Shown in pieces: positions 2 through 60,860 of a DNA stretch of 64,000 nucleotides (the first letter of the stretch is position 1; every line of letters starts with the position of its first letter). The DNA comes from an uncultured Candidatus Saccharibacteria bacterium (lineage in GTDB: Bacteria > Patescibacteriota > Minisyncoccia > Phycocordibacterales > UBA9973). The position numbers were made by a program, and so were the translations under genes. The notes below the pieces were generated by a model. The model saw nothing but the letters and a program-made list of their open reading frames with translations, was not told the DNA's origin and made no database searches. The stretch is from positions 10,751 through 74,750 of the forward strand of contig CAYHBT010000001.1 of NCBI GenBank assembly GCA_964354935.1. Direction: 5' to 3'.

Positions 2-1861
2 TTCGCTTTTGCCAAAAAATTCAATATTCCTTTACATGAAGTTGTTGAACCGCTTTTTGTTGATACTAGTAGTATTAGTGGAGTTCAAAATGATAAGCCT
101 TTTGTTGAACGAGAAGTTATTTCGGCTATCGTCAAACATTGGTCCGAAGACAAATATATAGGCCTTAGATGGAAAAAGGTTAATTGGGGAACTTTTATTA
201 CTGGCGGAGTAGAAGATGGTCAGACACCCGAAGAAGCGGCGCGAAGAGAAATAGAGGAGGAAACAGGTTACTTTAATTTCAAATCAGTTAAGGTCTTAGG
301 ACGTTCTTATAGTAAATTTTATCATGTACCGAAAAAGCAAAATCGTTTTGCGCATTTTACTAATTTTTATTTTGAATTAAAAAATGGAGAACAGAAAGTA
401 ATTTCGGAAGAAGAAAAAGGCAATCATGACATAGTCTGGCTTAAACCCGAAGAAATAGAAAATTTTATTACAGCCGAAGGCCAGAGACGCGATTGGAATT
501 TAGTGCAGGGAACAGAAAAAGCCATCGCAAAAAATGGAATTTTACTAGAACCATTAGAATTTAAAGGCAGGGAATGGGGTGAAGTGCGGGAAGATGTTAT
601 TAATTTTATTGTCAAAAATGGCTGGGGAGAAAGAAAAGTAAACTACAAACTCCGCGACTGGGTTTTTTCGAGGCAGAGGTATTGGGGCGAGCCTATACCG
701 GTGGTGCATTGCGCTAAGTGTGGCGTAGTCCCTGTTCCGGAGAAAGATTTGCCGGTGGAATTGCCGAAAGTAAAAAATTATCAGCCGACGGATAGCGGAG
801 AATCGCCGCTCGCCAATATTACAAAGTGGGTAAATACGAAATGTCCAAAGTGTAAAGGGCCTGCGAAGAGGGAAACAGACACGATGCCAAACTGGGCGGG
901 AAGTTCTTGGTATTTTTTGAGATATGTTGATGCTAAAAACAATAAAGAGTTTGCAAGCAAGAAAAATTTGGAATATTTCACGCCAGTCGATTGGTACAAC
1001 GGCGGAATGGAGCATACGACTTTGCATTTATTGTATTCTCGTTTCTGGCATAAATTTTTATATGATTTGAAAGTCGTGCCTACCAGCGAACCATATATGA
1101 AGCGTACTTCGCAAGGAATGATTTTAGGCGAAGGGGGGGTAAAAATGTCGAAATCTCTCGGGAATGTGATCAATCCGGACGATATTGTGAAAACCTACGG
1201 CGCAGACACTCTTCGATTGTATGAAATGTTTATGGGCCCGTTTGATCAATCAGTGGCATGGTCGTCGGAATCTATGATTGGACCGAGGAGGTTTTTGGAA
1301 AAAGTTTGGAGAATTGGATTTTCTATATCCTCGCCAAAGAAGAAAAATTCTTCGGCTTTCCTCCACCCTTCGGGCGGAACCTTCCGCCAGCAGAATTCTT
1401 CTTCTTTGGCTCGTCTCTTAAACAAAACCATCAAAAAAGTTTCAGAAGATATTGAAGGTATGAATTTCAACACGGCAATTTCCAGCATGATGATATTGGC
1501 GAACGAAATGGAAAAGACAGAAAATATTTCTATTGAAGATTATAAAATATTTTTAAAGCTTCTCTCACCATTTGCGCCACATATCTCGGAAGAGTTGTGG
1601 TCAATACTGGGTAATAAAAAGTCTATAAGTTTGGAATCTTGGCCGGCATATGATGTTTCTAAAATAAAAGACGATGAAATAAAAATTGTAATACAAATAA
1701 ACGGCAAACTTCGCGCAGAAATTATAATTCAAGCGGAAGACTCGGAAGAAAAAATCAAAGAAAAAGCTCTTGCAAACGAGTCTATTTCAAAGCATATCAC
1801 AGGTAAAAATATCAAAAAGGTAATATATGTAAAAAACCGACTTATCAACATTGTGCTGTAG
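2..1861 (+). CDS. leuS: leucyl-tRNA synthetase, C-terminal portion (5' end truncated by the window). Reading frame 2 is open from position 2. A Nudix-like domain lies upstream of the RDW/YWG catalytic motif.
   Basis: Carries GERKVNYKLRDWVFSRQRYWGEPIP and KMSKS motifs and a class I LeuRS C-terminal anticodon-binding region. The frame is continuous upstream of the first Met, through to the listed ORF 503..1861. Confidence 0.9.
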   Translation, partial: FAFAKKFNIPLHEVVEPLFVDTSSISGVQNDKPFVEREVISAIVKHWSEDKYIGLRWKKVNWGTFITGGVEDGQTPEEAARREIEEETGYFNFKSVKVLGRSYSKFYHVPKKQNRFAHFTNFYFELKNGEQKVISEEEKGNHDIVWLKPEEIENFITAEGQRRDWNLVQGTEKAIAKNGILLEPLEFKGREWGEVREDVINFIVKNGWGERKVNYKLRDWVFSRQRYWGEPIPVVHCAKCGVVPVPEKDLPVELPKVKNYQPTDSGESPLANITKWVNTKCPKCKGPAKRETDTMPNWAGSSWYFLRYVDAKNNKEFASKKNLEYFTPVDWYNGGMEHTTLHLLYSRFWHKFLYDLKVVPTSEPYMKRTSQGMILGEGGVKMSKSLGNVINPDDIVKTYGADTLRLYEMFMGPFDQSVAWSSESMIGPRRFLEKVWRIGFSISSPKKKNSSAFLHPSGGTFRQQNSSSLARLLNKTIKKVSEDIEGMNFNTAISSMMILANEMEKTENISIEDYKIFLKLLSPFAPHISEELWSILGNKKSISLESWPAYDVSKIKDDEIKIVIQINGKLRAEIIIQAEDSEEKIKEKALANESISKHITGKNIKKVIYVKNRLINIVL

Positions 1862-1908: not shown

Positions 1909-4077
1909 ATGCGATCAAACACATTTGACAGGCTTTCGTTTTTGTCACTCTTTTTAGTAATAATATTATTACCTTTTTTCTTTTTACCTTTTACCAATAT
2001 TCCGGTGGGGATTTCTAAGGGAGCGCTTCTGGTGATTGGGCTTGCTTTTTCTGTTATTTTTTGGGGTTTTGCCAGATTTTTTGACGGAAAAATCATTCTT
2101 CCAAAATCAATGTTTCTTGCGGCGGGTGGGGGGATAGTTTTAGTATTTTTCCTTTCGGCTCTTTTAGTGAAAGCTTCGCAAGTGTCTTTCTTTGGCACAA
2201 TGCTTGATGTCGGCACTTTTTGGTTTATGTTTGCTGGTTTTCTTTTGATGCTTATGTGTTCTATTTCTTTCCGTCACCCCAAGAGCGCTAGGCTGGTTTT
2301 ATTTGGAGCGATACTTTCTGCCGCGATTGTTTTAATTTTTCAAGCTATTCGTTTGTTGGCACCTCAAATTCTATCGCTGGGAGTGTTGGCTTCAAAAACC
2401 GATAATTTAATCGGTTCTTGGAACGAGCTGGGTATTTTTGCCGGATTTTCCGCAATAATGTCGCTTCTTGTTGTTGAATTTTTTTCAACTACAAGAATGG
2501 AAAAATTAATACTTCAATCTCTGATTGTGCTTTCAATGATATTGATTGCTGCTGTTAATTTTGCATTTGTGTGGGGTTTGCTCGGACTTTCGGCTTTGAT
2601 AATCTTCGTCTATAAAATTTCAATTTCTTCTAGTCGTAAGTTTGCGCAAGAATCAAAAGTGGAAGAAAATGGAGAGAAACATATTCATATATCCGGTGAA
2701 GGTGAAGAAAAAAATTATTTTCCAGTCTTTTCTTTTGCGATAGTGATGATTTCCCTGTTATTTTTTATGTCCGGACAGTCCATAGGATCAATATTGCCAA
2801 ATCGTCTCGGAATACAAAACAATGAAGTCGGTCCCAGTTTTCAAGCTACGGTTGAAGTTGCCAAATCAGTTCTTAAAGACAATCTTATTTTCGGTATAGG
2901 TCCAAATAAATTTGGAGAAGCTTGGACTATGTACAAGCCGAAGGCGGTAAATAGCACCGCTTTCTGGAATGTTTCTTTTGATACGGGTTCTGGATTGCTG
3001 CCAACCTTGGTCGCTACTACTGGTTATGCCAGTATCCTTGCTTGGCTCGTATTTTTTGTCTTTTTTATGATAAGTGGTGTCAAGTCTATTTTTTCGAGCA
3101 TCAAACATGGAATAAATTGGGAGACGATGGCTTTTTTCCTTCTGTCTCTATATTTATTTATTTCTTCTTTCTTTTATTCGACCGGTTCGGTAATATTTTT
3201 ACTCGCTTTAGCTTTCGCCGGAGTGTTTGCTGGTTTATCTGCCACAAACAACAAAGAGGGAGAAATTTCCATAGCGTTTTTAAGTGACCATAGGAAAAGT
3301 TTCTTTTCGATGATGTTTCTGGTTGTTTTGGTGATTCTTTCAGTGGCTGTCTCTTTTAAATATGTGGAACGTTTTGTTTCTGTTTCGTATTTTAGAAAAG
3401 CGCTTGCAGCAGAAACTGTTCCGGAAGCTATTACCTCAATTAGTAAAGCTCTTTCTCTATATACTAATGATTTATATTTGCGAGCGTATTCAGATGTTTA
3501 TCTTTTGAAATTAAATTCTTTAGTTTCTAAAGGAGATTCTTTGTCGGAAGCGGAAAAGACAGATTTACAGACAAGTTTAGATCAAGCTGTTTTGGGTGAT
3601 CAGCAGGCAATTGTCTATAATCCTAAAAATTATTTAAATTTTAGAGCTCTCGGTTCTCTGTATCAAAATCTAGCTTCATACGGAGTGAAAGATGCTTACG
3701 CTCGAGCAGTCGAAGCTTATCAAGCAGCTTCTACTTTAAATCCAAACAACCCCGGACTTAAGCTTTCTATGGCCATCTCATCTATTGCGGATAAAAAAAT
3801 TGATTCAGCGAAAGAGTATACTAATGCTGCTCTGGTTTTAAAACCAGATTATATAGATGCGTGGATTGTTCTCGCAGAAATAGCTAAAAGCGAAGGAGAT
3901 ACAAAAAATGCGCTTGAGTATGCGGAGACAGCTCTATATTTGGCTCCCACAAATGAAGATTTGAAAAAATATGTTAATTCTTTTAAAAACTCCAACTCTT
4001 CTTCGGTGACAGCTCCTTCGAATATTACTCCTCCTGATACTTCAAAGACCCCCGACGGTCCTATTAAGAAAAAATAA
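1909..4077 (+). CDS. polytopic membrane protein, O-antigen ligase (Wzy_C)-like with C-terminal TPR repeats
   Basis: At least 10 predicted TM helices, followed by TPR-like repeats (AYSDVYLLKL, ALGSLYQNLASYG, AYQAASTLNP, ALYLAPTNEDL). Confidence 0.6.
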   Translation: MRSNTFDRLSFLSLFLVIILLPFFFLPFTNIPVGISKGALLVIGLAFSVIFWGFARFFDGKIILPKSMFLAAGGGIVLVFFLSALLVKASQVSFFGTMLDVGTFWFMFAGFLLMLMCSISFRHPKSARLVLFGAILSAAIVLIFQAIRLLAPQILSLGVLASKTDNLIGSWNELGIFAGFSAIMSLLVVEFFSTTRMEKLILQSLIVLSMILIAAVNFAFVWGLLGLSALIIFVYKISISSSRKFAQESKVEENGEKHIHISGEGEEKNYFPVFSFAIVMISLLFFMSGQSIGSILPNRLGIQNNEVGPSFQATVEVAKSVLKDNLIFGIGPNKFGEAWTMYKPKAVNSTAFWNVSFDTGSGLLPTLVATTGYASILAWLVFFVFFMISGVKSIFSSIKHGINWETMAFFLLSLYLFISSFFYSTGSVIFLLALAFAGVFAGLSATNNKEGEISIAFLSDHRKSFFSMMFLVVLVILSVAVSFKYVERFVSVSYFRKALAAETVPEAITSISKALSLYTNDLYLRAYSDVYLLKLNSLVSKGDSLSEAEKTDLQTSLDQAVLGDQQAIVYNPKNYLNFRALGSLYQNLASYGVKDAYARAVEAYQAASTLNPNNPGLKLSMAISSIADKKIDSAKEYTNAALVLKPDYIDAWIVLAEIAKSEGDTKNALEYAETALYLAPTNEDLKKYVNSFKNSNSSSVTAPSNITPPDTSKTPDGPIKKK

Positions 4078-9430: not shown

Positions 9431-9472
9431 AGTGAGAGCTTTAGGCTCTAGGGAGAGTCTAAAGCTCTCACT
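9431..9472 (+). terminator. perfect 14-bp inverted repeat hairpin after lepA (AGTGAGAGCTTTAG...CTAAAGCTCTCACT). Belongs to the cagagcctaaRgc palindrome family.
   Basis: Inverted repeat read directly from the sequence. Downstream of it is an AT-rich stretch. Confidence 0.5.
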
Positions 9473-19334: not shown

Positions 19335-19575
19335 TGCTTTGTGCAGACGGAAGTATGTTTTTCTAGTAAGAAAAATAACTGAGTCCGGGGCTGGAAAATT
19401 TGCTTTTGACGGAAAGCAAATTATTGTGGCTCACATGAACTATGAACGCGAAGCGTTCTAATAATAGTATTCTCGCGGATTTCTTTTTAAAAATTCGGCG
19501 GGATTCGGAACTCTGCCCGCAGGAGAGATGTGCTATGAGGAATGTGTAGAGGATTTTTATACGAGATTCGTTTAG

Positions 19576-26800: not shown

Positions 26801-27955
26801 TTAAAGCTTTAAATTACCAGTCGCTTTAATGGATTCCGGCTTGGGGACTTTTTTCTTGTTTTTTATATAATTTAAATATCCGGCGATGCCGATCATTAGA
26901 GAATTGTCTCCTGCTAGACCTTTTGGAGGCAAAAAGAGTTTGGTTTGGCGGCCAACATTTTTCTTCATTTCTCTTTGTAGATGTGTATTGCAAGCTACTC
27001 CGCCGGCGACGATCAAAGTTTTTACGTCGTATTTTTCCATCGCTTTTTTGGTTTTATGGACGAGGCATTCGATTGCTGCGTTTTCAAATTCTAGAGCTAT
27101 CTTAGATTTTATCTCATCTGTTAATTTTCCGTCCGGAGAAATTTTTCTGATTAAATACAAAACAGCGGTTTTTAATCCCGCGAAAGAAAAATCAAAATTT
27201 TTACTGTGGAGCATGGGGCGAGGCAGGGAACAAGAGAAATCAAATCTTGTGGGGTCGCAATTTTTCTGCTGAAAAATTTGCTCCGTCCTCGGCCCGTCGG
27301 CCTGCGTAGACCCCCCAAGATTTATTTCTCTTGTTCCTCTTAACTGCTCCGCCAGTTTTGAAATCTGTGGACCGCCAGGGTAGGGAAGATCGAGCATTCT
27401 AGCGACTTTATCAAAAGCTTCGCCGACGGCATCGTCCAAAGTTTTGCCGATGATTTCGTAATCCATCCATTTTTTCATCAACACCAGTTGCGTGTGTCCG
27501 CCGGAAACCAAAAGTGATAATGCCGGAAATTTTATTTTGGAAACTGCAAATTTTCCTTTATGTTTTCCAAACACAGAAAGTATGTGCCCTTCCATATGGT
27601 TTACCGGAATCAAAGGTGTATTCCATTTTTCCGCCAAATTTTTCGCAAAAGAAATTCCTTCCCAGAGGCACATTTCTAGTCCCGGACCATAAGTGACGGC
27701 GATAGCGTCTACCGGTCTTCCTTTTTTATCCAACTTTGCTTGTTTCAAACTTGCCTCTAAAACAATCGGCAGGTTTTCTGCGTGTTCTCTTTTTGCCAAG
27801 ACAGGATACACTCCGCCGTAAGGAATATGAACATTTATCTGCGAATTTGAATTATTCGCTAAAACTTTAAAAGAAGCATTTGTGATGCCTCCCTTTATCT
27901 CCATTATGCTTATTGCTGTGTCATCACAACTTGTCTCAATACTTAAAAGTTTCAT
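26801..27955 (-). CDS. tsaD: tRNA N6-adenosine threonylcarbamoyltransferase TsaD, with an in-frame insertion of about 38 aa
   Basis: IETSCDDTAISI, HMEGH, VSGGHTQL and YPGGPQIS motifs. The insertion LRGTREIN...RFDFSCS lies before LPRPM. Confidence 0.85.
   Translation of the reverse strand: MKLLSIETSCDDTAISIMEIKGGITNASFKVLANNSNSQINVHIPYGGVYPVLAKREHAENLPIVLEASLKQAKLDKKGRPVDAIAVTYGPGLEMCLWEGISFAKNLAEKWNTPLIPVNHMEGHILSVFGKHKGKFAVSKIKFPALSLLVSGGHTQLVLMKKWMDYEIIGKTLDDAVGEAFDKVARMLDLPYPGGPQISKLAEQLRGTREINLGGSTQADGPRTEQIFQQKNCDPTRFDFSCSLPRPMLHSKNFDFSFAGLKTAVLYLIRKISPDGKLTDEIKSKIALEFENAAIECLVHKTKKAMEKYDVKTLIVAGGVACNTHLQREMKKNVGRQTKLFLPPKGLAGDNSLMIGIAGYLNYIKNKKKVPKPESIKATGNLKL
27227..27337. repeat. hairpin element copy A: about 29-bp inverted-repeat arms flanking a conserved 52-nt core (ttttctgctgaaaaatttgctccgtcctcggcccgtcggcctgcg), inserted in-frame in tsaD
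   Basis: The core is about 90% identical to the one at 52777..52828. The arms differ between copies. Confidence 0.75.
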
Positions 27956-27956
27956 G

Positions 27957-28029
27957 TGCGCGATACAGGATTCGAACCTATGGCCTACCCCACGTCAAGG
28001 GGTCGCTCTACCAACTGAGCTAATCGCGC
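27957..28029 (-). tRNA. tRNA-Val(GAC)
   Basis: Reverse complement reads gcgcgattagctcagttggtagagcgaccccttGACgtggggtaggccataggttcgaatcctgtatcgcgca. Confidence 0.8.
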
Positions 28030-34392: not shown

Positions 34393-35361
34393 CTATTTCG
34401 TATTCAACGCAAGATAAATATCTTCGAGCGCGCGGACGGCATCGCCGGCGGCGATGTTGTTTTGATGATAGAGGACATCGGTGCAATCTCCGGCCGCCCA
34501 GATGCCTTGTGTCTGCGTCTTTTGCGTTTTAGGGTCTATTATTACTCTGCCTATTTCGTCGAGCGGAACGATGTCCTTAGCAAAACCGGTGTTTGGGATT
34601 TGCCCTATCTCCACAAAAATACCGGCGACAAGAAGCTCCACGATTTCTCCGGTCGTTTTATTTTTGTAGATAATGCCTTCCACGAATTTATCGCCTTTCA
34701 CTTCCAAAATGTCGACATTTTTAACCGCTTTCATTTTTGGATTTTTCAAAACTTTTTCTACCGTAATTTCATCGGCGCGGAAAGACTCGCTTCGATGTAA
34801 GAGGGTCACAGACTTGCAGTAAGCGAGGAGCTGGGAAGCGCTTTCAAATCCGGCGTTGCCTCCACCGATCACGACGACGTCTTGCCCTTCAAATAGAGGT
34901 CCGTCACAAGAAGCGCAATAGGTGAGGCCTTTATGTTCCAGTCTGTCCGCATTTTTCGCTTCCAACTTTCTGCGTCCGCTACCTGTCGCTATTAAAATAG
35001 TTTTTGTCTCAAATTCTTGACCGGATTCCGTCTTAACTAAGAAAACAGAGCCTAAAGCTCTGTTGAGTAGAGCTTTAGGCTCTGGAGGCACCATCTTTAC
35101 TGAAATTACTTTTTCACCCTCTTTCACTTCTAATGTTTGTCCGGCTCCGGCGTTTGCAAGCACATGTGTTTTTAAATTTTCCGCGAGTTCATTGCCGGAG
35201 AGGGAAGTCGTCCCGATCCAGTTGTATATTTTTTCAGACACGACAGACTGCCCGCCCCATTCGGCAGTGACGAAAAGGGTCTGTAGTCTTTTGCGAGAAG
35301 CATAGACTGCTGCCGCCGCTCCAGCCGGCCCGCCTCCGATGATTGTTAAATCGTAAATCAT
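34393..35361 (-). CDS. trxB: thioredoxin reductase
   Basis: IIGGGPAGAAAA, CASCDGPLF redox-active disulfide, and a second NAD(P)-binding GGGNAG motif. Contains an in-frame palindrome encoding PEPKALLNRALGS. Confidence 0.9.
   Translation of the reverse strand: MIYDLTIIGGGPAGAAAAVYASRKRLQTLFVTAEWGGQSVVSEKIYNWIGTTSLSGNELAENLKTHVLANAGAGQTLEVKEGEKVISVKMVPPEPKALLNRALGSVFLVKTESGQEFETKTILIATGSGRRKLEAKNADRLEHKGLTYCASCDGPLFEGQDVVVIGGGNAGFESASQLLAYCKSVTLLHRSESFRADEITVEKVLKNPKMKAVKNVDILEVKGDKFVEGIIYKNKTTGEIVELLVAGIFVEIGQIPNTGFAKDIVPLDEIGRVIIDPKTQKTQTQGIWAAGDCTDVLYHQNNIAAGDAVRALEDIYLALNTK
35045..35084. repeat. perfect 16-bp palindrome CAGAGCCTAAAGCTCT..AGAGCTTTAGGCTCTG, in-frame inside trxB
   Basis: Same family as the hairpins at 9431..9472 and 45716..45757. 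Confidence 0.8.
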
Positions 35362-42208: not shown

Positions 42209-42712
42209 TTGTTTTATGGGTGGAGTACAATATATATGAAGTGGGAAAAAGTGGGAAATAATAATTTTATGCTAATCGGAGAATACATACACACAATCGA
42301 TGAGAAGAGTAGAATTTCTTTGCCGGTAAAATTTCGCAAAGAGATGGGCAGAAAAATCATTATTACTCCAGGGCTTGGTCAGTGTTTGTTTATCTTTACA
42401 AACAAAGAATGGGAAAAAGTGAGCAAGAGGCTTTCTAGTTCAGATTCAGATCTTTCGTTTCTTAAAGCTGATCAAAGAAATTTCAATCGATATATGTTTG
42501 GACGAGCGGCAGAAGTAGAAATTGATTCAATAGGTAGAATGCTAATTCCTGAATATTTACAGACAAGAATTGGTTTGAAAAATTCGGCGGCGATTATCGG
42601 AGTCAAAGACAGAGTGGAAATTTGGAATGAGAAGATGTGGTCGGAGCAGAAAGCAATCGTCGAAAAGCAAGCGGAAGAATTAGCGGAAAAGCTTGGAAAC
42701 GAAGAGAAATAA
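42209..42712 (+). CDS. mraZ: transcriptional regulator MraZ (likely true start MLIGEY at 42269)
   Basis: Tandem MraZ repeats: GEYIHTIDEKSRISLP and GRAAEVEIDSIGRMLIP. Confidence 0.85.
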   Translation: MFYGWSTIYMKWEKVGNNNFMLIGEYIHTIDEKSRISLPVKFRKEMGRKIIITPGLGQCLFIFTNKEWEKVSKRLSSSDSDLSFLKADQRNFNRYMFGRAAEVEIDSIGRMLIPEYLQTRIGLKNSAAIIGVKDRVEIWNEKMWSEQKAIVEKQAEELAEKLGNEEK

Positions 42713-43613
42713 GATGAGCGTACACAAGACAGTTCTTTTAAATGAAGCTATAGAAGGTTTAAACCTAAAAGCAAAATCAACCGTATTGGACGGCACATTT
42801 GGCGGCGGTGGGCACAGCTTAGAGATTTGTCGCAGATTTCCTGATGTAAAAATAATCGCCCTTGACCAAGACAAGAATGTTTTTGTGCGGGAAGATAAAT
42901 TCAAAAGTTGCAACATTTCTTTTGTTAATGAAAATTTTAGGAATATAGATAAAGTTTTGTCCGCCCAAGGCGGACTCACCTCGGGCGAGGAGAAAATAGA
43001 TGGAATCATTTTTGATTTAGGTTTGAGTTCTGATCAGTTGGAAAGTTCCGGACGAGGATTTTCTTTTATGCGAGATGAGCCGCTCATAATGACGATGAAA
43101 GAAAATCCTCTTCCGGAAGATATCACAGCTTTTGAGGTTGTGAATACTTGGGCAGAGGAAAGTTTGGCTGATATTATTTATGGTTACGGTGAAGAAAAGC
43201 AGGCTCGACCGATTGCTAAATCGATAGTGGAGTTTAGAAAGAAAAGAGAGATTAAAACCACTTTTGATTTAGTCAAAATAATCGAGCAAGCGATTCCTGC
43301 CAGATTTCGAAGGGGAAGAATCCACTGCGCGACCAAAACTTTTCAAGCAATCAGAATCGCGGTGAATGATGAATTGGGCGCATTATCTGAAGGGCTATCC
43401 AAAGGATTTCAGGCATTAAAGGTGGGAGGCAGAATGTCAGTGATAACATTTCATAGTTTGGAGGATCGGATAGTCAAGAGATTTTTTAAAAAACAAGCAG
43501 AAGAAAAGATGGTCTTATTAATAAATAAAAAACCAATCACCGCAAGCATTGAAGAAATTAAAAATAATCCGAGGGCTAGAAGCGCAAAGTTAAGAATTTT
43601 AGAAAAAAAATAA
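42693..43613 (+). CDS. rsmH: 16S rRNA (cytosine1402-N4)-methyltransferase RsmH (likely start MSVHKTV at 42717)
   Basis: VLDGTFGGGGHS SAM-binding motif. Confidence 0.9.
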   Translation: METKRNKMSVHKTVLLNEAIEGLNLKAKSTVLDGTFGGGGHSLEICRRFPDVKIIALDQDKNVFVREDKFKSCNISFVNENFRNIDKVLSAQGGLTSGEEKIDGIIFDLGLSSDQLESSGRGFSFMRDEPLIMTMKENPLPEDITAFEVVNTWAEESLADIIYGYGEEKQARPIAKSIVEFRKKREIKTTFDLVKIIEQAIPARFRRGRIHCATKTFQAIRIAVNDELGALSEGLSKGFQALKVGGRMSVITFHSLEDRIVKRFFKKQAEEKMVLLINKKPITASIEEIKNNPRARSAKLRILEKK

Positions 43614-45715: not shown

Positions 45716-45757
45716 ACAGAGCCTAAGGCACTGGCTAGCCAGTGCCTTAGGCTCTGT
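45716..45757 (+). terminator. perfect 19-bp palindrome ACAGAGCCTAAGGCACTGG..CCAGTGCCTTAGGCTCTGT after ftsI
   Basis: Same family as the palindromes at 9431 and 35045. Confidence 0.5.
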
Positions 45758-52001: not shown

Positions 52002-52718
52002 TTATTTCCCCAAATAATGTTTTAAAGTATATATCCAATCCTCATCTATCTGGTCGCCCGCAAGTTTTTGGGCTAGCAGCCATTCTAAATAATCTCTATT
52101 TGTCTTTAAAACATCTTCAATTTTTTTGCCGATATGTTTGCCGAAGTTAAACGAACGAAGGAGGGAAGGGTGGCCGGAGATTTCTATCATTTTTTCTATG
52201 GCTTCGCTTTCACTTACTTTATCCTCTGACATTATTTTATTTTTCAGTCGTTCAAAAAGTTTCTCCAAGACCATCACATCGCCGAGGGCGTCGTGCGCCG
52301 TCGCGTCTATTTCTATATCGAGATAGTAACGCAGGTATTGGAGTTTGTATTGTGCTATTTTTTCTTCTTTATCCAAAAATCTGGCAACTCGCAAGGTGCA
52401 GATAAAGTTCGCAGGTTCTATACCTTCTTTTTTAATAATCATCAAATCAAAAGGCGCGTTGTGGGCGACCACGACAGAATCCTCATCTTCAAAAATGGAT
52501 TTTATTTTTTCTTTGTCTTCACTTTCGGAAAAAGATGGTTTGTCCGCCACCATTTTATTAGTGATGTGATGTACGGCAGAAGCTTCCGGGGGGATTTTGA
52601 TTTCCGGCTTGTAAAGACCGACAAACTTTTCATCACCGGATTTGTAAGCAATCTGGCACAAAAAATCTTTCTGTTCGTTGCCCGTGGTTTCTGTATCAAA
52701 GAATATAAGTTTAGACAT
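52002..52718 (-). CDS. DEDDh 3'-5' exonuclease (DnaQ/epsilon-like) with a C-terminal FGKHIGKKIEDV...YLEWL domain
   Basis: FFDTETTG (Exo I), VAHNAPFD (Exo II) and HDALGD (Exo III) motifs. Confidence 0.75.
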   Translation of the reverse strand: MSKLIFFDTETTGNEQKDFLCQIAYKSGDEKFVGLYKPEIKIPPEASAVHHITNKMVADKPSFSESEDKEKIKSIFEDEDSVVVAHNAPFDLMIIKKEGIEPANFICTLRVARFLDKEEKIAQYKLQYLRYYLDIEIDATAHDALGDVMVLEKLFERLKNKIMSEDKVSESEAIEKMIEISGHPSLLRSFNFGKHIGKKIEDVLKTNRDYLEWLLAQKLAGDQIDEDWIYTLKHYLGK

Positions 52719-52746
52719 TTCACTATTTTAACATAGTTTGATATAA

Positions 52747-52858
52747 TACAGAAAGGAAATTTGCTGTTTTTGGGTCACATAATTTTCTGCTGAAAATTTG
52801 TTCCTTCTCGGCCCGTCGGCCTGCGAAAGACCCAAAAACAGCAAATTTCCTTTCTGTA
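52747..52858. repeat. hairpin element copy B: perfect 30-bp inverted-repeat arms (tacagaaaggaaatttgctgtttttgggtc / gacccaaaaacagcaaatttcctttctgta) flanking the conserved 52-nt core. Intergenic.
   Basis: The core matches copy A in tsaD. The arms are unrelated to those of copy A. Confidence 0.8.
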
Positions 52859-52859
52859 T

Positions 52860-53309
52860 ATGTTGCATGAACAAATAAAATCTGGAATAAAAGAAGCCAT
52901 GATGGCGAAAGATGCCTTGCGTCTTGCGTCATTTCGGGCCATGTCGGCCGCTTTTACCAACGAGCTGGTCGCTAAAAACAAAAAACCGCAAGATATGCTC
53001 TCCGACGAAGAGGCGATTGCTGTGATTGCTCGACTCGCCAAACAACGCAAAGATTCCATCGAGCAATTTAAAAAAGGAGGCAGGGAGGATTTGGTCAAAG
53101 AAGAACAAGCTGAGCTTTCAATATTAGAAACCTATCTGCCGAAAATGATGAGTAAAGCAGAAGTTGAAAAAATTGCTAAAGCGAAAAAGGCTGAATTGGG
53201 TATTACTGATGCCACCAAGAAAGGAATGCTGATGTCGGCGTTGATGAAAGATTTGAAAGGCAAGGCAGACGGCGCTGTAGTCAAAGAAGCCGTCGATTCA
53301 CTTTTCTAA
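52860..53309 (+). CDS. yqeY: GatB/YqeY domain protein
   Basis: YqeY-like helical domain. About 149 aa. Confidence 0.7.
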   Translation: MLHEQIKSGIKEAMMAKDALRLASFRAMSAAFTNELVAKNKKPQDMLSDEEAIAVIARLAKQRKDSIEQFKKGGREDLVKEEQAELSILETYLPKMMSKAEVEKIAKAKKAELGITDATKKGMLMSALMKDLKGKADGAVVKEAVDSLF

Positions 53310-59009: not shown

Positions 59010-60860
59010 TTGAAAAACTTGAAATCTGAAATTAAAAAATTTTTTAAGGGAGATGCGGAGGATAGTGAAGCGACCCTCTTTAAGTATTCGCACGATGCGA
59101 GCTTGCTCGAAGTGATGCCCAAGCTCGTGCTTTTTCCGAAAGATTCGGAAGATGTGAAAAATTTGCTTAAATGGGTGAATGCAAATTCCACTCGCTCAGA
59201 CTTACTAGAAAAATACGGCAAACTTTCTGTGACTGCCAGATGCGCGGGGACAGATATGTCGGGTGGAGCCATCGGAGAATCGATTATTTTGGATTTTACT
59301 CGTTATATGAATAAATTAATCGGCGGACCGTTGCCGATTGGCGGTGCGGGATTTAAAAAGAATAAAAATTATCCAGTTACGACTTCATCTATCACCGTGG
59401 AGCCCGGAATGTTTTATCGGGATTTTGAAAAAATAACTTTAGCAAAAGGACTTATCTTGCCCTGCTTCACCGCTTCAAAAAGCTTGAATGCGATGGGTGG
59501 AATGTTTGGCAACAATTCAGCGGGAGAGCGCACTTTGAAATATGGCAAAACCGAAGATTATATTTTGGAGACAAAGGTTGTCCTTGCTGATGGCAGTGAA
59601 TGCGTAGTTAAACCTTTAAACAAAGAAGAATTAAATAAAAAAATCGCACAGAATGATTTCGAAGGAGAAATTTATAAAAAAATATCTCAATTAATCACGC
59701 AAAATGAAGACGAGATAAGACATTCCAAACCAGTCGTTCATAAAAATTCTGCCGGATACTATATTTGGAATGTTGTGGAGGATTCGGCTGTAAAAAATTC
59801 TTCCGCTTTCCTCCACCCTGCGGGCGGAACCTTCCGCGGGGCGAATTCTTCACAGCCGAATCCTGAAGTGCCAAAAAATTCTCTTGATTCCTATTTTGAT
59901 CTAAACAAACTTCTCGTCGGCTCGCAAGGCACTTTAGGTATTGCGACCGAGCTGACTTTCAAAATAATACCGGAAAATAAGTATTCCAAATTAGTAGCGA
60001 TTTTTATGAAAGATCTGGCGCCGCTTGGTCGCTTGGTTGATGAGATTTTAAGATTAAACCCTGAAACACTAGAATCTTACGATGACAAGACGATGAGGTT
60101 GGCGGTACGATTTTTCCCAGATTTTTTGAAAACCAAAGGAATCTTTGGAATGTTGAAATTAATGAGGAATTTTTTGCCTGAATTTTTAATGATGATAAAG
60201 GGCGGTTTTCCAAAGCTGATTCTTTTGGTTGAATTTACCGGAGATGATGAAAAATTCGTCAATCAAAAATGTTTAAAGCTAGCAGATCAAATTAAAAATT
60301 TTAAATTAGAAGTTCACATCACCAAGTCCAACGAAGAGGCGAATAAATATTGGGATATCAGAAGAGAGAGTTTTGCTCTTTTGCGAAAACATGTAAAAGG
60401 AATGCGTACAGCGCCGTTTATTGATGATATCATCGTGCGACCAGAATTTCTACCGAAATTTATTCCCGAGCTGAATACTATTTTAAGCAAATATAATCTA
60501 ACTTACACGCTGGCGGGGCACGCGGGAGATGGCAATTTTCATATTATTCCTCTGATGGATTTCAAACGCCCCGATATTGCTAAAATAATAATGGATCTTT
60601 CTGAGAAAGTTTACGATTTAGTGGCGAAATATCAAGGTTCAATTACCGCCGAACACAATGACGGATTAATTCGCACTCCATATCTTAGTAAAATGTACGA
60701 CGAGATAATGCTTAAAATTTTCGCGCAAATTAAGGAAATTTTTGACTCCAAAAATATTTTAAATACTGGAAAAAAAGTCCCGACAGAAAATTTCGGTGGA
60801 ACGAAAGAATACATTGCTTCGCATATCGCGATGGAACACCAAGCTGGGCACAAAATTTAA
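59010..60860 (+). CDS. FAD-linked oxidase (GlcD/D-lactate dehydrogenase-like, FAD_binding_4 plus C-terminal domain) containing the same in-frame 60-nt repeat found in leuS
   Basis: FAD_binding_4 region (GAGTDMSGGA). C-terminal oxidase domain. Shares the repeat peptide KNSSAFLHPAGGTFR with leuS. Confidence 0.7.
   Translation: MKNLKSEIKKFFKGDAEDSEATLFKYSHDASLLEVMPKLVLFPKDSEDVKNLLKWVNANSTRSDLLEKYGKLSVTARCAGTDMSGGAIGESIILDFTRYMNKLIGGPLPIGGAGFKKNKNYPVTTSSITVEPGMFYRDFEKITLAKGLILPCFTASKSLNAMGGMFGNNSAGERTLKYGKTEDYILETKVVLADGSECVVKPLNKEELNKKIAQNDFEGEIYKKISQLITQNEDEIRHSKPVVHKNSAGYYIWNVVEDSAVKNSSAFLHPAGGTFRGANSSQPNPEVPKNSLDSYFDLNKLLVGSQGTLGIATELTFKIIPENKYSKLVAIFMKDLAPLGRLVDEILRLNPETLESYDDKTMRLAVRFFPDFLKTKGIFGMLKLMRNFLPEFLMMIKGGFPKLILLVEFTGDDEKFVNQKCLKLADQIKNFKLEVHITKSNEEANKYWDIRRESFALLRKHVKGMRTAPFIDDIIVRPEFLPKFIPELNTILSKYNLTYTLAGHAGDGNFHIIPLMDFKRPDIAKIIMDLSEKVYDLVAKYQGSITAEHNDGLIRTPYLSKMYDEIMLKIFAQIKEIFDSKNILNTGKKVPTENFGGTKEYIASHIAMEHQAGHKI

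Follow-up and report, generated by a model that had tools for sequence, protein, structure and literature searches.

Palindromic elements with a conserved structured core and copy-specific arms in Patescibacteria, with one copy in frame in tsaD and one upstream of yqeY

Two long hairpins in the window (the whole 64-kb stretch of DNA analyzed) were assigned, with a probability of roughly 0.6, to a Patescibacteria-specific family of non-coding, non-autonomous, mobile or formerly mobile palindromic elements resembling MITEs and Rickettsia palindromic elements (RPEs). Copy A (27227-27337) lies inside tsaD, whereas copy B (52746-52859) separates the −10 box of yqeY from its start codon; a stem of ~30 bp around the same core of ~52 nt is common to both. 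The family is apparently undescribed, and full-text literature searches on Patescibacteria/CPR returned no description of such elements.

The initial annotation had reported two loci with a near-identical core and inverted-repeat arms, and their coordinates and sequences were as first described (Table 1). The arms of copy A formed 28 matched pairs with one mismatch and one bulge, those of copy B were 31 nt each and 100% complementary, and the arms of the two copies were unrelated apart from the innermost GGGTC/GACCC. The 18-mer TCGGCCCGTCGGCCTGCG occurred exactly twice in the window (0.02 expected). Both copies folded into a long stem and a three-way junction carrying two small hairpins, with energies of −55 to −63 kcal/mol and z-scores of −8 to −12 versus shuffles on either strand. 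A covariance model of the family, trained on 45 members, matched only copies A and B in the 64 kb, the next best hit (21 bits) being an overlap with copy A on the other strand. A third hairpin (19395-19428), which had been said to resemble the arms of copy B but to have no core, was an ordinary 13-bp hairpin scoring 9.5 bits with the family model (E = 1.7) and does not belong to the family.

Table 1. Positions in the window of tsaD, the yqeY promoter-like site and the parts of the two hairpins
Feature	Position	Strand	Remarks
tsaD ORF	26801..27955	-	384 aa; copy A = residues 207-243; Pfam TsaD match split in two around the insert
Copy A left arm	27227..27256	+	tsaD sense (minus) strand encodes DPTRFDFSCS
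Copy A conserved core	27257..27308	-	Covariance-model match 27254-27309, minus strand, 62.2 bits; fold; alignment
Copy A P3 hairpin	27257-27281		AUUUUUC-AGCA-GAAAAAU plus 3-bp outer stem
Copy A P2 hairpin	27291-27302	-	GGCC-GACG-GGCC
Copy A right arm	27309..27337	+	tsaD sense strand encodes GTREINLGG
yqeY promoter-like site	52719..52747	+	TTCACT-17-TGnTATAAT
Copy B left arm	52746..52776	+	Starts within the last two bases of the yqeY −10 hexamer TATAAT (52742-52747)
Copy B conserved core	52777..52828	-	Covariance-model match 52774-52828, minus strand, 74.5 bits; fold
Copy B P3	52777-52801		
Copy B P2	52810-52821		
Copy B right arm	52829..52859	+	Last base just before the yqeY ATG at 52860

As single-stranded DNA or RNA, the core (~52-55 nt) forms a three-way junction. 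P1 consists of the nearly perfect inverted-repeat arms (20-47 bp), P2 has the consensus NNN-G(G/C)A-GGCC-GACG-GGCC-GA-N'N'N', and P3 has the consensus NNN-NN-UUUUC-AGCA-GAAAA-N'N'-A-N'N'N'. The core loops and the junction were kept across orders and the stems covaried; within the arms, the inner ~5-11 bp were subfamily-specific and the distal part was copy-specific. In the covariation alignment, 94.9% of cells were paired (75.6% in shuffles), double changes were present in 15 of the 17 pairs, and the covariation score of 0.446 (versus 0.106) was matched by none of 500 shuffles, slid controls giving ~0.05. Mismatches in the distal arms were unevenly distributed between strands: those of the G.U type numbered 27 on the strand opposite the search pattern and 8 on the other, and purine-purine mismatches had the same asymmetry (25 versus 3), a possible sign that one strand is under selection, either as RNA or as single-stranded DNA. 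The persistence of the core loops and junction across very divergent lineages, and in coding sequence whatever the frame, is unexpected of selfish decaying repeats and could reflect a host function instead.

An exact-pattern scan of species-representative genomes returned 107 further copies, nearly all in MAGs of Patescibacteria/Paceibacteria, with labels such as Patescibacteria, Paceibacterota, Nomurabacteria and Kaiserbacteria. The core is thus not limited to the two loci of the window, and these copies bore out the earlier proposal that the family is dispersed, keeps its core while the arms differ from copy to copy, and is distinct from a classical MITE with fixed TIRs. The elements were about 90-170 nt long, non-coding and multi-copy, with 3-5 strict-pattern copies in each of several MAGs and two in the 64 kb of the window. 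At L013, L017, L037 and L066, cores were identical within one genome and the distal arms were different; in the subfamily of L015, L072, L073, L021, L056, L098 and L101, the whole 125-nt unit, arms included, was conserved at different loci. Most copies were intergenic and filled whole spacers, either between convergent genes or all the way from a stop to a start codon. When orientation was compared with that of the flanking genes, 12 intergenic copies were on the same strand, 18 on the opposite strand, 15 between convergent and 9 between divergent genes, and this mixed orientation argues against a strand-specific role as cis-RNA.

No recurring family that could represent a linked transposase or partner was detected among 571 flanking ORFs, which clustered only as orthologous housekeeping genes, and clear direct repeats of the kind left by target-site duplication were not seen by eye in the AT-rich flanks. 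A transposase, a target-site duplication or an autonomous partner was thus not detected in these flanks, and the proposed mobility is deduced from the distribution of copies and from site polymorphism.

Copy A leaves the tsaD reading frame open across residues 207-243. The peptide EINLGGSTQADGPR of the predicted TsaD product spans the insert. In the AlphaFold model, pLDDT fell below 50 at residues 210-239 only, the insert being a low-confidence coil and the remainder confident, and the 37 extra residues are predicted to form a disordered surface loop. An insert was present at the same site in ~112 of 120 TsaD orthologues (64-82% identity), and all of these ~112 proteins read through it. Together with the low-pLDDT segment, the read-through orthologues agree with the original description of the tsaD copy as an in-frame, tolerated loop insertion. 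The inserts occurred in at least three frames of one orientation, in reverse orientation, as double inserts and as a GC-rich variant with the P3 stem wholly replaced and its loop retained; their arms diverged between orthologues yet remained paired. Since frames and both orientations varied at this one site, it is the DNA that is conserved and not the peptide. On the same observations, the tsaD segment is not a recent private insertion.

The eight short TsaD orthologues lacked the hairpin. Their apparently empty sites were rejected as a pre-insertion state, because purine-rich and pyrimidine-rich remnants of both arms remained; they look like secondary deletions and therefore do not reveal the original target. 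In the genome scan, read-through in-frame copies were found in five genes (tsaD, a RecG-like gene, a PrmC-like gene, DnaE and a methyltransferase), all in one orientation and in one frame through P2. Of seven in-ORF copies inspected in the DNA itself, six were open and in frame.

Insertion was also traceable at the yqeY site, where 74 orthologous exonuclease-yqeY spacers were compared. About 25 of them were empty and 35 nt long, with the promoter 6 nt from the ATG in a leaderless layout. Neither arm was present in the empty spacers, and the arms of copy B were hence part of the inserted DNA. Copy B converts the leaderless-type layout into a hairpin leader of 113 nt and −61 kcal/mol, and yqeY expression is probably altered as a side effect. 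The family model matched 21 loci among the 74 spacers (the two orientations at 14 and 7 loci, and two copies at 4), and other hairpin families occupied the same spot in some genomes. The initial annotation had also considered arms built from target sequence. For copies A and B this was not shown: the arms belong to the inserted DNA, and no third arm copy was recovered from the flanks, either with 16-mers (≤2 mismatches, ±600 nt; 6 of 56, low-complexity) or by Smith-Waterman comparison with the ±150-nt flanks, using those of other loci as control. The resemblance noted between a copy A arm and the nearby tsaD flank was likewise not above chance (51 copies, whose own ±150-nt flanks were no better than those of other loci).

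Insertion of the core into the loops of pre-existing hairpins is possible. Coreless hairpins at the yqeY site (L141, L126), which on alignment corresponded to a single arm and the tip of the second, were discarded as examples of a pre-existing hairpin, as partial deletion fits at least as well. At the yqeY site, different cores were combined with partly homologous outer arms, which does not in itself demonstrate loop insertion.

Local origin of the arms was seen in a tRNA-linked subtype only, in other genomes. Its copies were on the tRNA strand in ~15 of 20 loci and 40-90 nt downstream of the tRNA. The 3' arm reproduced exactly the final ~18 nt of the neighboring tRNA gene and the 5' arm was its inverted copy; the stem copied the 3' strand of the tRNA acceptor and T-arm. 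Such a layout, tRNA(...X)-spacer-X'-core-X, would be expected from a small folded or circular DNA integrating at X by single crossover. It is conceivable, if speculative, that Patescibacteria have an undescribed insertion or recombination system that acts on hairpins in a single-strand, structure-specific manner, with the Y-shaped core as its recognition module and a stem that is not fixed and copies or mimics a genomic site, or that the core is a processed small RNA derived from long stems or tRNA-like minihelices.

In the favored reading of copies A and B as members of a mobile or formerly mobile family, the core would be recognized by a trans-acting mobilizing or recombining activity. Template switching during replication between the arms would keep them complementary while they diverge and would flip the core; such switching between inverted-repeat arms homogenizes the arms and inverts the spacer (PMC8604942, PMC7202029). 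Cores would stay alike through ectopic conversion or continuing spread. Copy A would then be an old insertion in tsaD, translated as a disordered loop of 37 residues, with selection keeping only the frame open, for which Rickettsia palindromic elements provide a precedent of palindromic elements in frame (PMC10969869).

A functional structured RNA module is a rather unlikely alternative. The Y core would bind a conserved protein or act as a small RNA, P1 or the tRNA-minihelix-like stem of the tRNA-linked copies would offer RNase III, RNase P or RNase Z a point of processing, and paralogues would keep loops and vary stems. Strong covariation in P2 and P3, the invariant GACG and AGCA loops, a conserved bulged A, the replacement of the entire P3 stem with retention of the loop in the GC-rich tsaD variant, G.U and G.A mismatches that are more frequent on one strand, and the position of tRNA-linked copies downstream of tRNA genes on the same strand, with a stem copying the tRNA end, are all consistent with it. 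However, intergenic copies had no orientation preference relative to flanking genes, either core orientation occurred at the same site in both the yqeY leader and the tsaD mRNA, copies were present in essential ORFs, whose mRNA would be lost if it were processed, and many orthologous sites were empty, hence dispensable. The covariation may also stem from homogenization of short inverted repeats by template switching. In addition, there was no Rfam match: Rfam 15 at gathering thresholds returned tRNAs only in the window and 14 related loci, and searches with copy A at E ≤ 10 gave spurious matches only. ARAGORN called no copy as a tRNA, and readings of the core or the tRNA-linked subtype as hammerhead, K-turn, SRP, tmRNA, Y-RNA or armless tRNA were rejected, as the consensus motifs, judged by eye, did not fit. 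The element could also have a DNA-level function for the host, as a folded site used by a recombinase, by a replication or segregation factor or in DNA uptake, maintained by the cell and not selfish. Orientation independence, conservation of the core across orders and the tRNA-linked layout, which fits a small folded or circular DNA recombining once at X, agree with this idea; it was nevertheless considered improbable, as the density is low and irregular (two copies per 64 kb), the element can be absent from its sites, the same spots are shared with several unrelated hairpin families, and copies lie inside coding regions.

Excision of the element from the RNA or the protein, as for an intron or intein, which would leave TsaD without the 37 residues, is very improbable. 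In its favor, pairing of the arms would juxtapose the coding ends on either side, and the tsaD gene of L039 had its frame broken by a single extra C in a C4/C5 run inside the element, with both gene halves intact. An assembly error or a recent mutation could account for that break, and it stands against the in-ORF copies that were open and in frame and the ~112 TsaD proteins that read through, when about two thirds would be expected out of frame if the element were not translated. No ribozyme or intron matches were obtained (Rfam, E ≤ 10), and 37 residues are far below intein size. Split genes and introns were also rejected for copies between tandem genes, which extended from a normal stop codon to a normal start codon. 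That the hairpins are plain intrinsic terminators, or that the two look alike by chance, is hardly credible. Many copies do lie between convergent genes, but copy A falls within an ORF, and copy B, which lies between a promoter and a start codon, had no T-tract terminator signature, with no terminator-like site in 52600-52950; chance falls far short of explaining the 52-nt core that the two share and that recurs in >100 genomes.

Patescibacteria have tiny, streamlined genomes whose mobile and repetitive DNA is little known. Here palindromic elements, of this family and at least one other in the same window, colonize intergenic spacers and essential proteins, among them TsaD, DnaE, RecG-like, aminoacyl-tRNA synthetase and RsmH-type proteins. 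They lengthen proteins by frame-dependent, non-conserved loops and alter the spacing between promoter and start codon, and such inserts are to be expected by annotators and structural modellers. The combination of a conserved structured core, free arms, covariation and tRNA-end copying points to a recognition mechanism not yet described. If the core is a recognition module or a processed small RNA, the family would be a new class of element and not a MITE variant. The family and its covariance model can serve as a marker for genome dynamics in uncultured CPR lineages.

Among known systems, RPEs are palindromic repeats of ~100-150 bp in a reduced genome, often in frame in housekeeping genes, fold-compatible and with no linked transposase, and each of their families reportedly encodes its own conserved peptide (PMC10969869). 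The analogy drawn earlier with RPEs was apt, as in-frame read-through copies were present in housekeeping genes, at tolerated protein positions. RPEs as described are set apart by their peptide: here the peptide varies (three frames, both orientations) and the nucleotides are conserved. The conserved part here is an internal two-hairpin core with copy-specific arms, and the host phylum also differs. MITEs such as Correia, ERIC and BOX/RUP are short, non-coding and multi-copy, form long transcript hairpins and are intergenic or promoter-proximal; inversion has been reported for Correia elements, and RNase III cuts at the paired TIRs (PMC10969869). The present family is likewise small, non-coding and multi-copy, but MITEs have TIRs conserved family-wide and target-site duplications from a parent IS, whereas here the termini vary among copies and the center is conserved. 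L015, L072, L073 and their relatives, with conserved arms, come closest to MITEs. Changing yet complementary arms and inversion of the core at orthologous sites are features shared with template-switch mutagenesis (PMC8604942, PMC7202029). That is a mutational process and not an element, and it does not account for the origin of the core, its dispersal or its conserved loops.

REP/REPIN sequences are mostly intergenic hairpin repeats recognized as folded single strands and mobilized in trans by a RAYT (Y1 HUH) transposase, the product of a single-copy gene elsewhere in the genome. A REPIN consists of two inverted copies of one short REP, whereas the core here is asymmetric, with two different hairpins, which argues against a REP doublet, and no RAYT/TnpA gene was next to any copy (571 flanking ORFs). 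Integron attC and CTX-phage attP sites are folded single-stranded DNA hairpins of variable sequence used by tyrosine recombinases. In attC the stem base (R/L boxes) is conserved and the center is variable; the opposite was found here, with a conserved center and a variable base in place of conserved R''/L'' and L'/R' boxes around a variable center. No linked integrase or Xer-type gene was found among the flanking ORFs. As a lead only, the tRNA-linked stem, in reproducing the 3' end of the neighboring tRNA gene, resembles attC/attP.

Both hairpin loci of the initial annotation were confirmed in coordinates and sequence, and its description of their arms as unrelated holds, only the innermost GGGTC/GACCC being common to copies A and B. 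The 18-mer TCGGCCCGTCGGCCTGCG, common to both, occurs exactly twice in the window (0.02 expected). Whichever strand is taken, each copy folds as a stem of about 30 bp (P1) that ends in a three-way junction bearing two small hairpins (P2 and P3), at -55 to -63 kcal/mol (z-scores -8 to -12). A search of the 64-kb window with R1, a covariance model built from 45 family members, found only copies B and A (74.5 and 62.2 bits). The third hairpin, formerly regarded as resembling copy B's arms, scored 9.5 bits (19383-19429, E = 1.7) and is not a member.

Hairpin elements and associated features in the window
Feature	Position	Strand	Details
Copy A	27227-27337		left arm 27227-27256, right arm 27309-27337; one mismatch and one bulge between arms
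Copy A core	27257-27308
Copy B	52746-52859		arms 31 nt, 100% complementary
Copy B core	52777-52828
Copy B site			between extended -10 element TGnTATAAT (ends 52747) and yqeY ATG (52860); copy B fills the whole gap
tsaD ORF	26801-27955	minus	hosts copy A in frame, residues 207-243
tRNA gene	27957-28029	minus	ends 1-2 nt before tsaD start codon at 27955
Second-family copy	1333-1410		in class-I aminoacyl-tRNA synthetase ORF 503-1861, between catalytic and anticodon-binding domains
Second-family copy	59779-59864		in FAD-linked oxidase ORF 59010-60860, between its two domains
Inverted repeat	43046-43118		24 nt, 92% complementary; within coding sequence of RsmH/MraW ORF 42693-43613
Third palindrome family	9431-9472
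Third palindrome family	35046-35084
Third palindrome family	45716-45757		perfect 42-nt palindrome

Copies were aligned on the strand opposite to the search pattern, i.e. the window minus strand and tsaD sense strand. The core runs from one P1 arm through P2 (NNN-G(G/C)A-GGCC-GACG-GGCC-GA-N'N'N'), a linker and P3 (NNN-NN-UUUUC-AGCA-GAAAA-N'N'-A-N'N'N') to the other P1 arm. Covariation was tested on 45 sequences, some of them diverged variants that had been collected without the search pattern. Paired cells made up 94.9% of the core stems (75.6% after shuffling), both-sided changes were found at 15 of 17 core pairs, and the covariation score of 0.446 (vs 0.106) was attained in none of 500 shuffles; slid controls scored ~0.05. 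Variants replace the stems and keep the loops: P2 occurs as GGAU-GACG-AUCC and GCGC-GACG-GCGC, and P3 of a GC-rich tsaD variant as CUGUGCG-AGCA-CGCACAG.

Arms across the family are 20-47 bp long and nearly perfect. Their inner 5-11 bp are conserved within a subfamily (e.g. TTTTAAAAACC...GCTTTTTAAAA), the distal parts differ even between identical-core copies in one genome (L013, L017, L037, L066), and in one subfamily conservation extends over the arms to the full 125-nt unit (L015, L072, L073, L021, L056, L098, L101). For the long-armed type, no extra arm copy was found in the element flanks, which leaves the proposal of target-built arms unsupported. Among 54 non-redundant copies, distal-arm mismatches were strand-asymmetric, with 27 of G.U type on the minus-equivalent strand vs 8 on the other and 25 vs 3 for purine-purine mismatches, a possible sign either of mutational bias or of selection acting on a single strand, as RNA or ssDNA.

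Further copies, anticipated in the initial annotation, were sought by scanning a single genome of each species for TCTGCTGAAAA-N6-24-GGCCCGTCGGCC; this gave 107 loci, with 3-5 strict-pattern copies per genome in several MAGs. Almost every locus carries the label Patescibacteria, Paceibacterota, Nomurabacteria, Kaiserbacteria, Adlerbacteria, Uhrbacteria or Minisyncoccia. Two are labelled Proteobacteria (L002 and L020, from Pseudomonadales and Burkholderiales MAGs); these contigs are probably mis-binned, since L020 is sequence-identical to the Patescibacteria locus L106. Rfam 15 has no family at the element sites, and full-text searching found no description of such elements in Patescibacteria/CPR. 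Long-armed copies are mostly intergenic and often fill the entire spacer, with arms that abut or run into the stop and start codons. They show no orientation bias with respect to the genes beside them: 12 are co-oriented, 18 anti-oriented, 15 lie between convergent genes and 9 between divergent ones. Split genes were ruled out for copies between tandem genes. No transposase appears to be linked, as the 571 flanking ORFs contain no recurrent protein family. Five copies sit in long ORFs whose reading frame continues through the element (tsaD, a RecG-like helicase, a PrmC-like methyltransferase, DnaE and another methyltransferase); these five have one orientation and one frame across P2 (QADGP).

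The copy B spacer is divergent and shared by yqeY and an RNase T/ExoX-type exonuclease gene. From metagenomes, 80 orthologous exonuclease-yqeY loci were collected (exonuclease identity 72-83%), of which 74 had usable spacers. About 25 of these spacers (within L116-L195) are only 35 nt long and lack the hairpin and both arms; on the yqeY side, 6 nt separate TATAAT from the ATG (TATAAT-N6-ATG), with a similar layout on the other strand, which suggests leaderless mRNAs. At 21 loci, R1 detected the family within the spacer (14 in the window's orientation, 7 opposite, 4 with two copies). Other loci carry different hairpin elements of like architecture at the same spot: a ~186-nt class with the core's 5' part in common, one of ~140 nt, and short hairpins that have no core. 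The 6-nt gap has been struck by at least four hairpin-element classes in different genomes. In orthologous copies (window, L092, L107, L116, L136, L167) the outer arms are homologous and diverged, and still paired. L141 and L126 align to a single arm and the tip of its partner, and partial deletion would fit them at least as well as the pre-existing hairpins formerly proposed. From its empty and variously filled states, the spacer is an insertion/deletion hot spot, and the arms of copy B came along with the element. With copy B, a -61 kcal/mol hairpin comes to lie between the -10 box and start codon of yqeY, a gene leaderless in relatives, whose expression is likely affected.

At tsaD, an insert was found at exactly one position (between KLAEE.R and LPRPM) in about 112 of the 120 closest TsaD proteins (64-82% identity). 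At least 53 of the 120 are of QADGPR type, 14 use a second frame (RRxTGxR), one a third, and 11-14 have a reverse-oriented core (NFSAEKFxQSSGRRPAES); 8 are short, and the remaining proteins contain double inserts or variant cores. The tsaD insertion is not a recent one private to this genome. In the DNA of eight orthologues, arms differ between species yet stay complementary through many double changes in coding sequence. Given this and the several frames, nucleic-acid sequence and structure are what is conserved, the peptide only following. In the short sites both arms survive as purine-rich and pyrimidine-rich remnants, which suggests secondary deletion. Copy A contributes 37 residues to TsaD, in frame as originally noted; the AlphaFold model (mean pLDDT 86.9) falls below 50 only at residues 210-239, modelled as coil, which agrees with a tolerated surface loop. 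In the L039 orthologue (3600-3900) the element has an extra C (C5 vs G4 in the opposite arm) that breaks the frame, leaving the N- and C-terminal halves, each otherwise intact, in different frames; an assembly error or a young pseudogene may explain this or, improbably, excision. A genome with a double-insert tsaD (L113) has a further family copy in the spacer directly preceding the gene (1427-1488, 45.5 bits). In the window, tsaD has essentially no upstream spacer because of the adjoining tRNA gene.

In other genomes, a tRNA-linked subtype (L068, L090, L051, L014, L028, L062, L038, L031, L050, L070) has extended P2 and P3 and a short P1. In about 15 of 20 loci, its core follows a same-strand tRNA gene at a distance of 40-90 nt. 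Directly 3' of the core, the last ~18 nt of that tRNA (T-loop to discriminator) are duplicated exactly (Trp, Leu-GAG, Leu-CAG, Leu-TAA, Glu and others), and the 5' arm repeats this tRNA 3' end imperfectly in inverted form; these arms clearly are local sequence. A small folded or circular DNA joining by one crossover at X would leave the layout tRNA(...X)-spacer-X'-core-X. This underlies an improbable reading in which the core would be recognised by a new kind of hairpin-based insertion or recombination system whose stem copies a genomic site. The intervening spacer also forms a hairpin, with a conserved base that in several genomes reads AATGATTCGC...GCGAAGCATCATT.

The family is best explained as a non-autonomous palindromic repeat, because of its distribution, site polymorphism, orientation independence, dispensable sites, lack of linked genes and frame-agnostic presence in ORFs. 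A functional RNA would be in keeping with the deeply conserved loops, the strand-asymmetric mismatches and the co-orientation of tRNA-linked copies with their tRNAs; it was judged improbable, and a DNA site more improbable still.

The closest analogues of the palindromic repeat are Rickettsia palindromic elements (RPEs) and the small non-autonomous inverted-repeat elements known as MITEs (PMC10969869); unlike either, it has free termini and keeps its conserved part inside, as a covarying two-hairpin core. The initial interpretation was partly supported as a whole; its likening to RPEs rather than fixed-TIR MITEs agrees with the conserved core, copy-specific termini and in-frame ORF copies. Replication template switching between inverted-repeat arms homogenises arms and inverts spacers (PMC8604942, PMC7202029), and would keep the arms complementary and leave the core in both orientations. 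The family would represent an RPE/MITE-like palindromic element of unusual architecture in a little-studied phylum.

Other hairpins were also observed in the window. A second family of the same architecture has the core GCTTTCCTCCACCCTKCGGGCGGAACCTTCCGC and copy-specific arms of 19-22 bp; both copies lie in frame inside ORFs and encode KNSSAFLHP(S/A)GGTFR. In RsmH, the segment KENPLPED after the conserved GRGFSF is the inverted complement of that motif's own coding DNA, and the repeat looks like a template-switch conversion within the gene. A third palindrome family is built on AGAGCCTAARGC.
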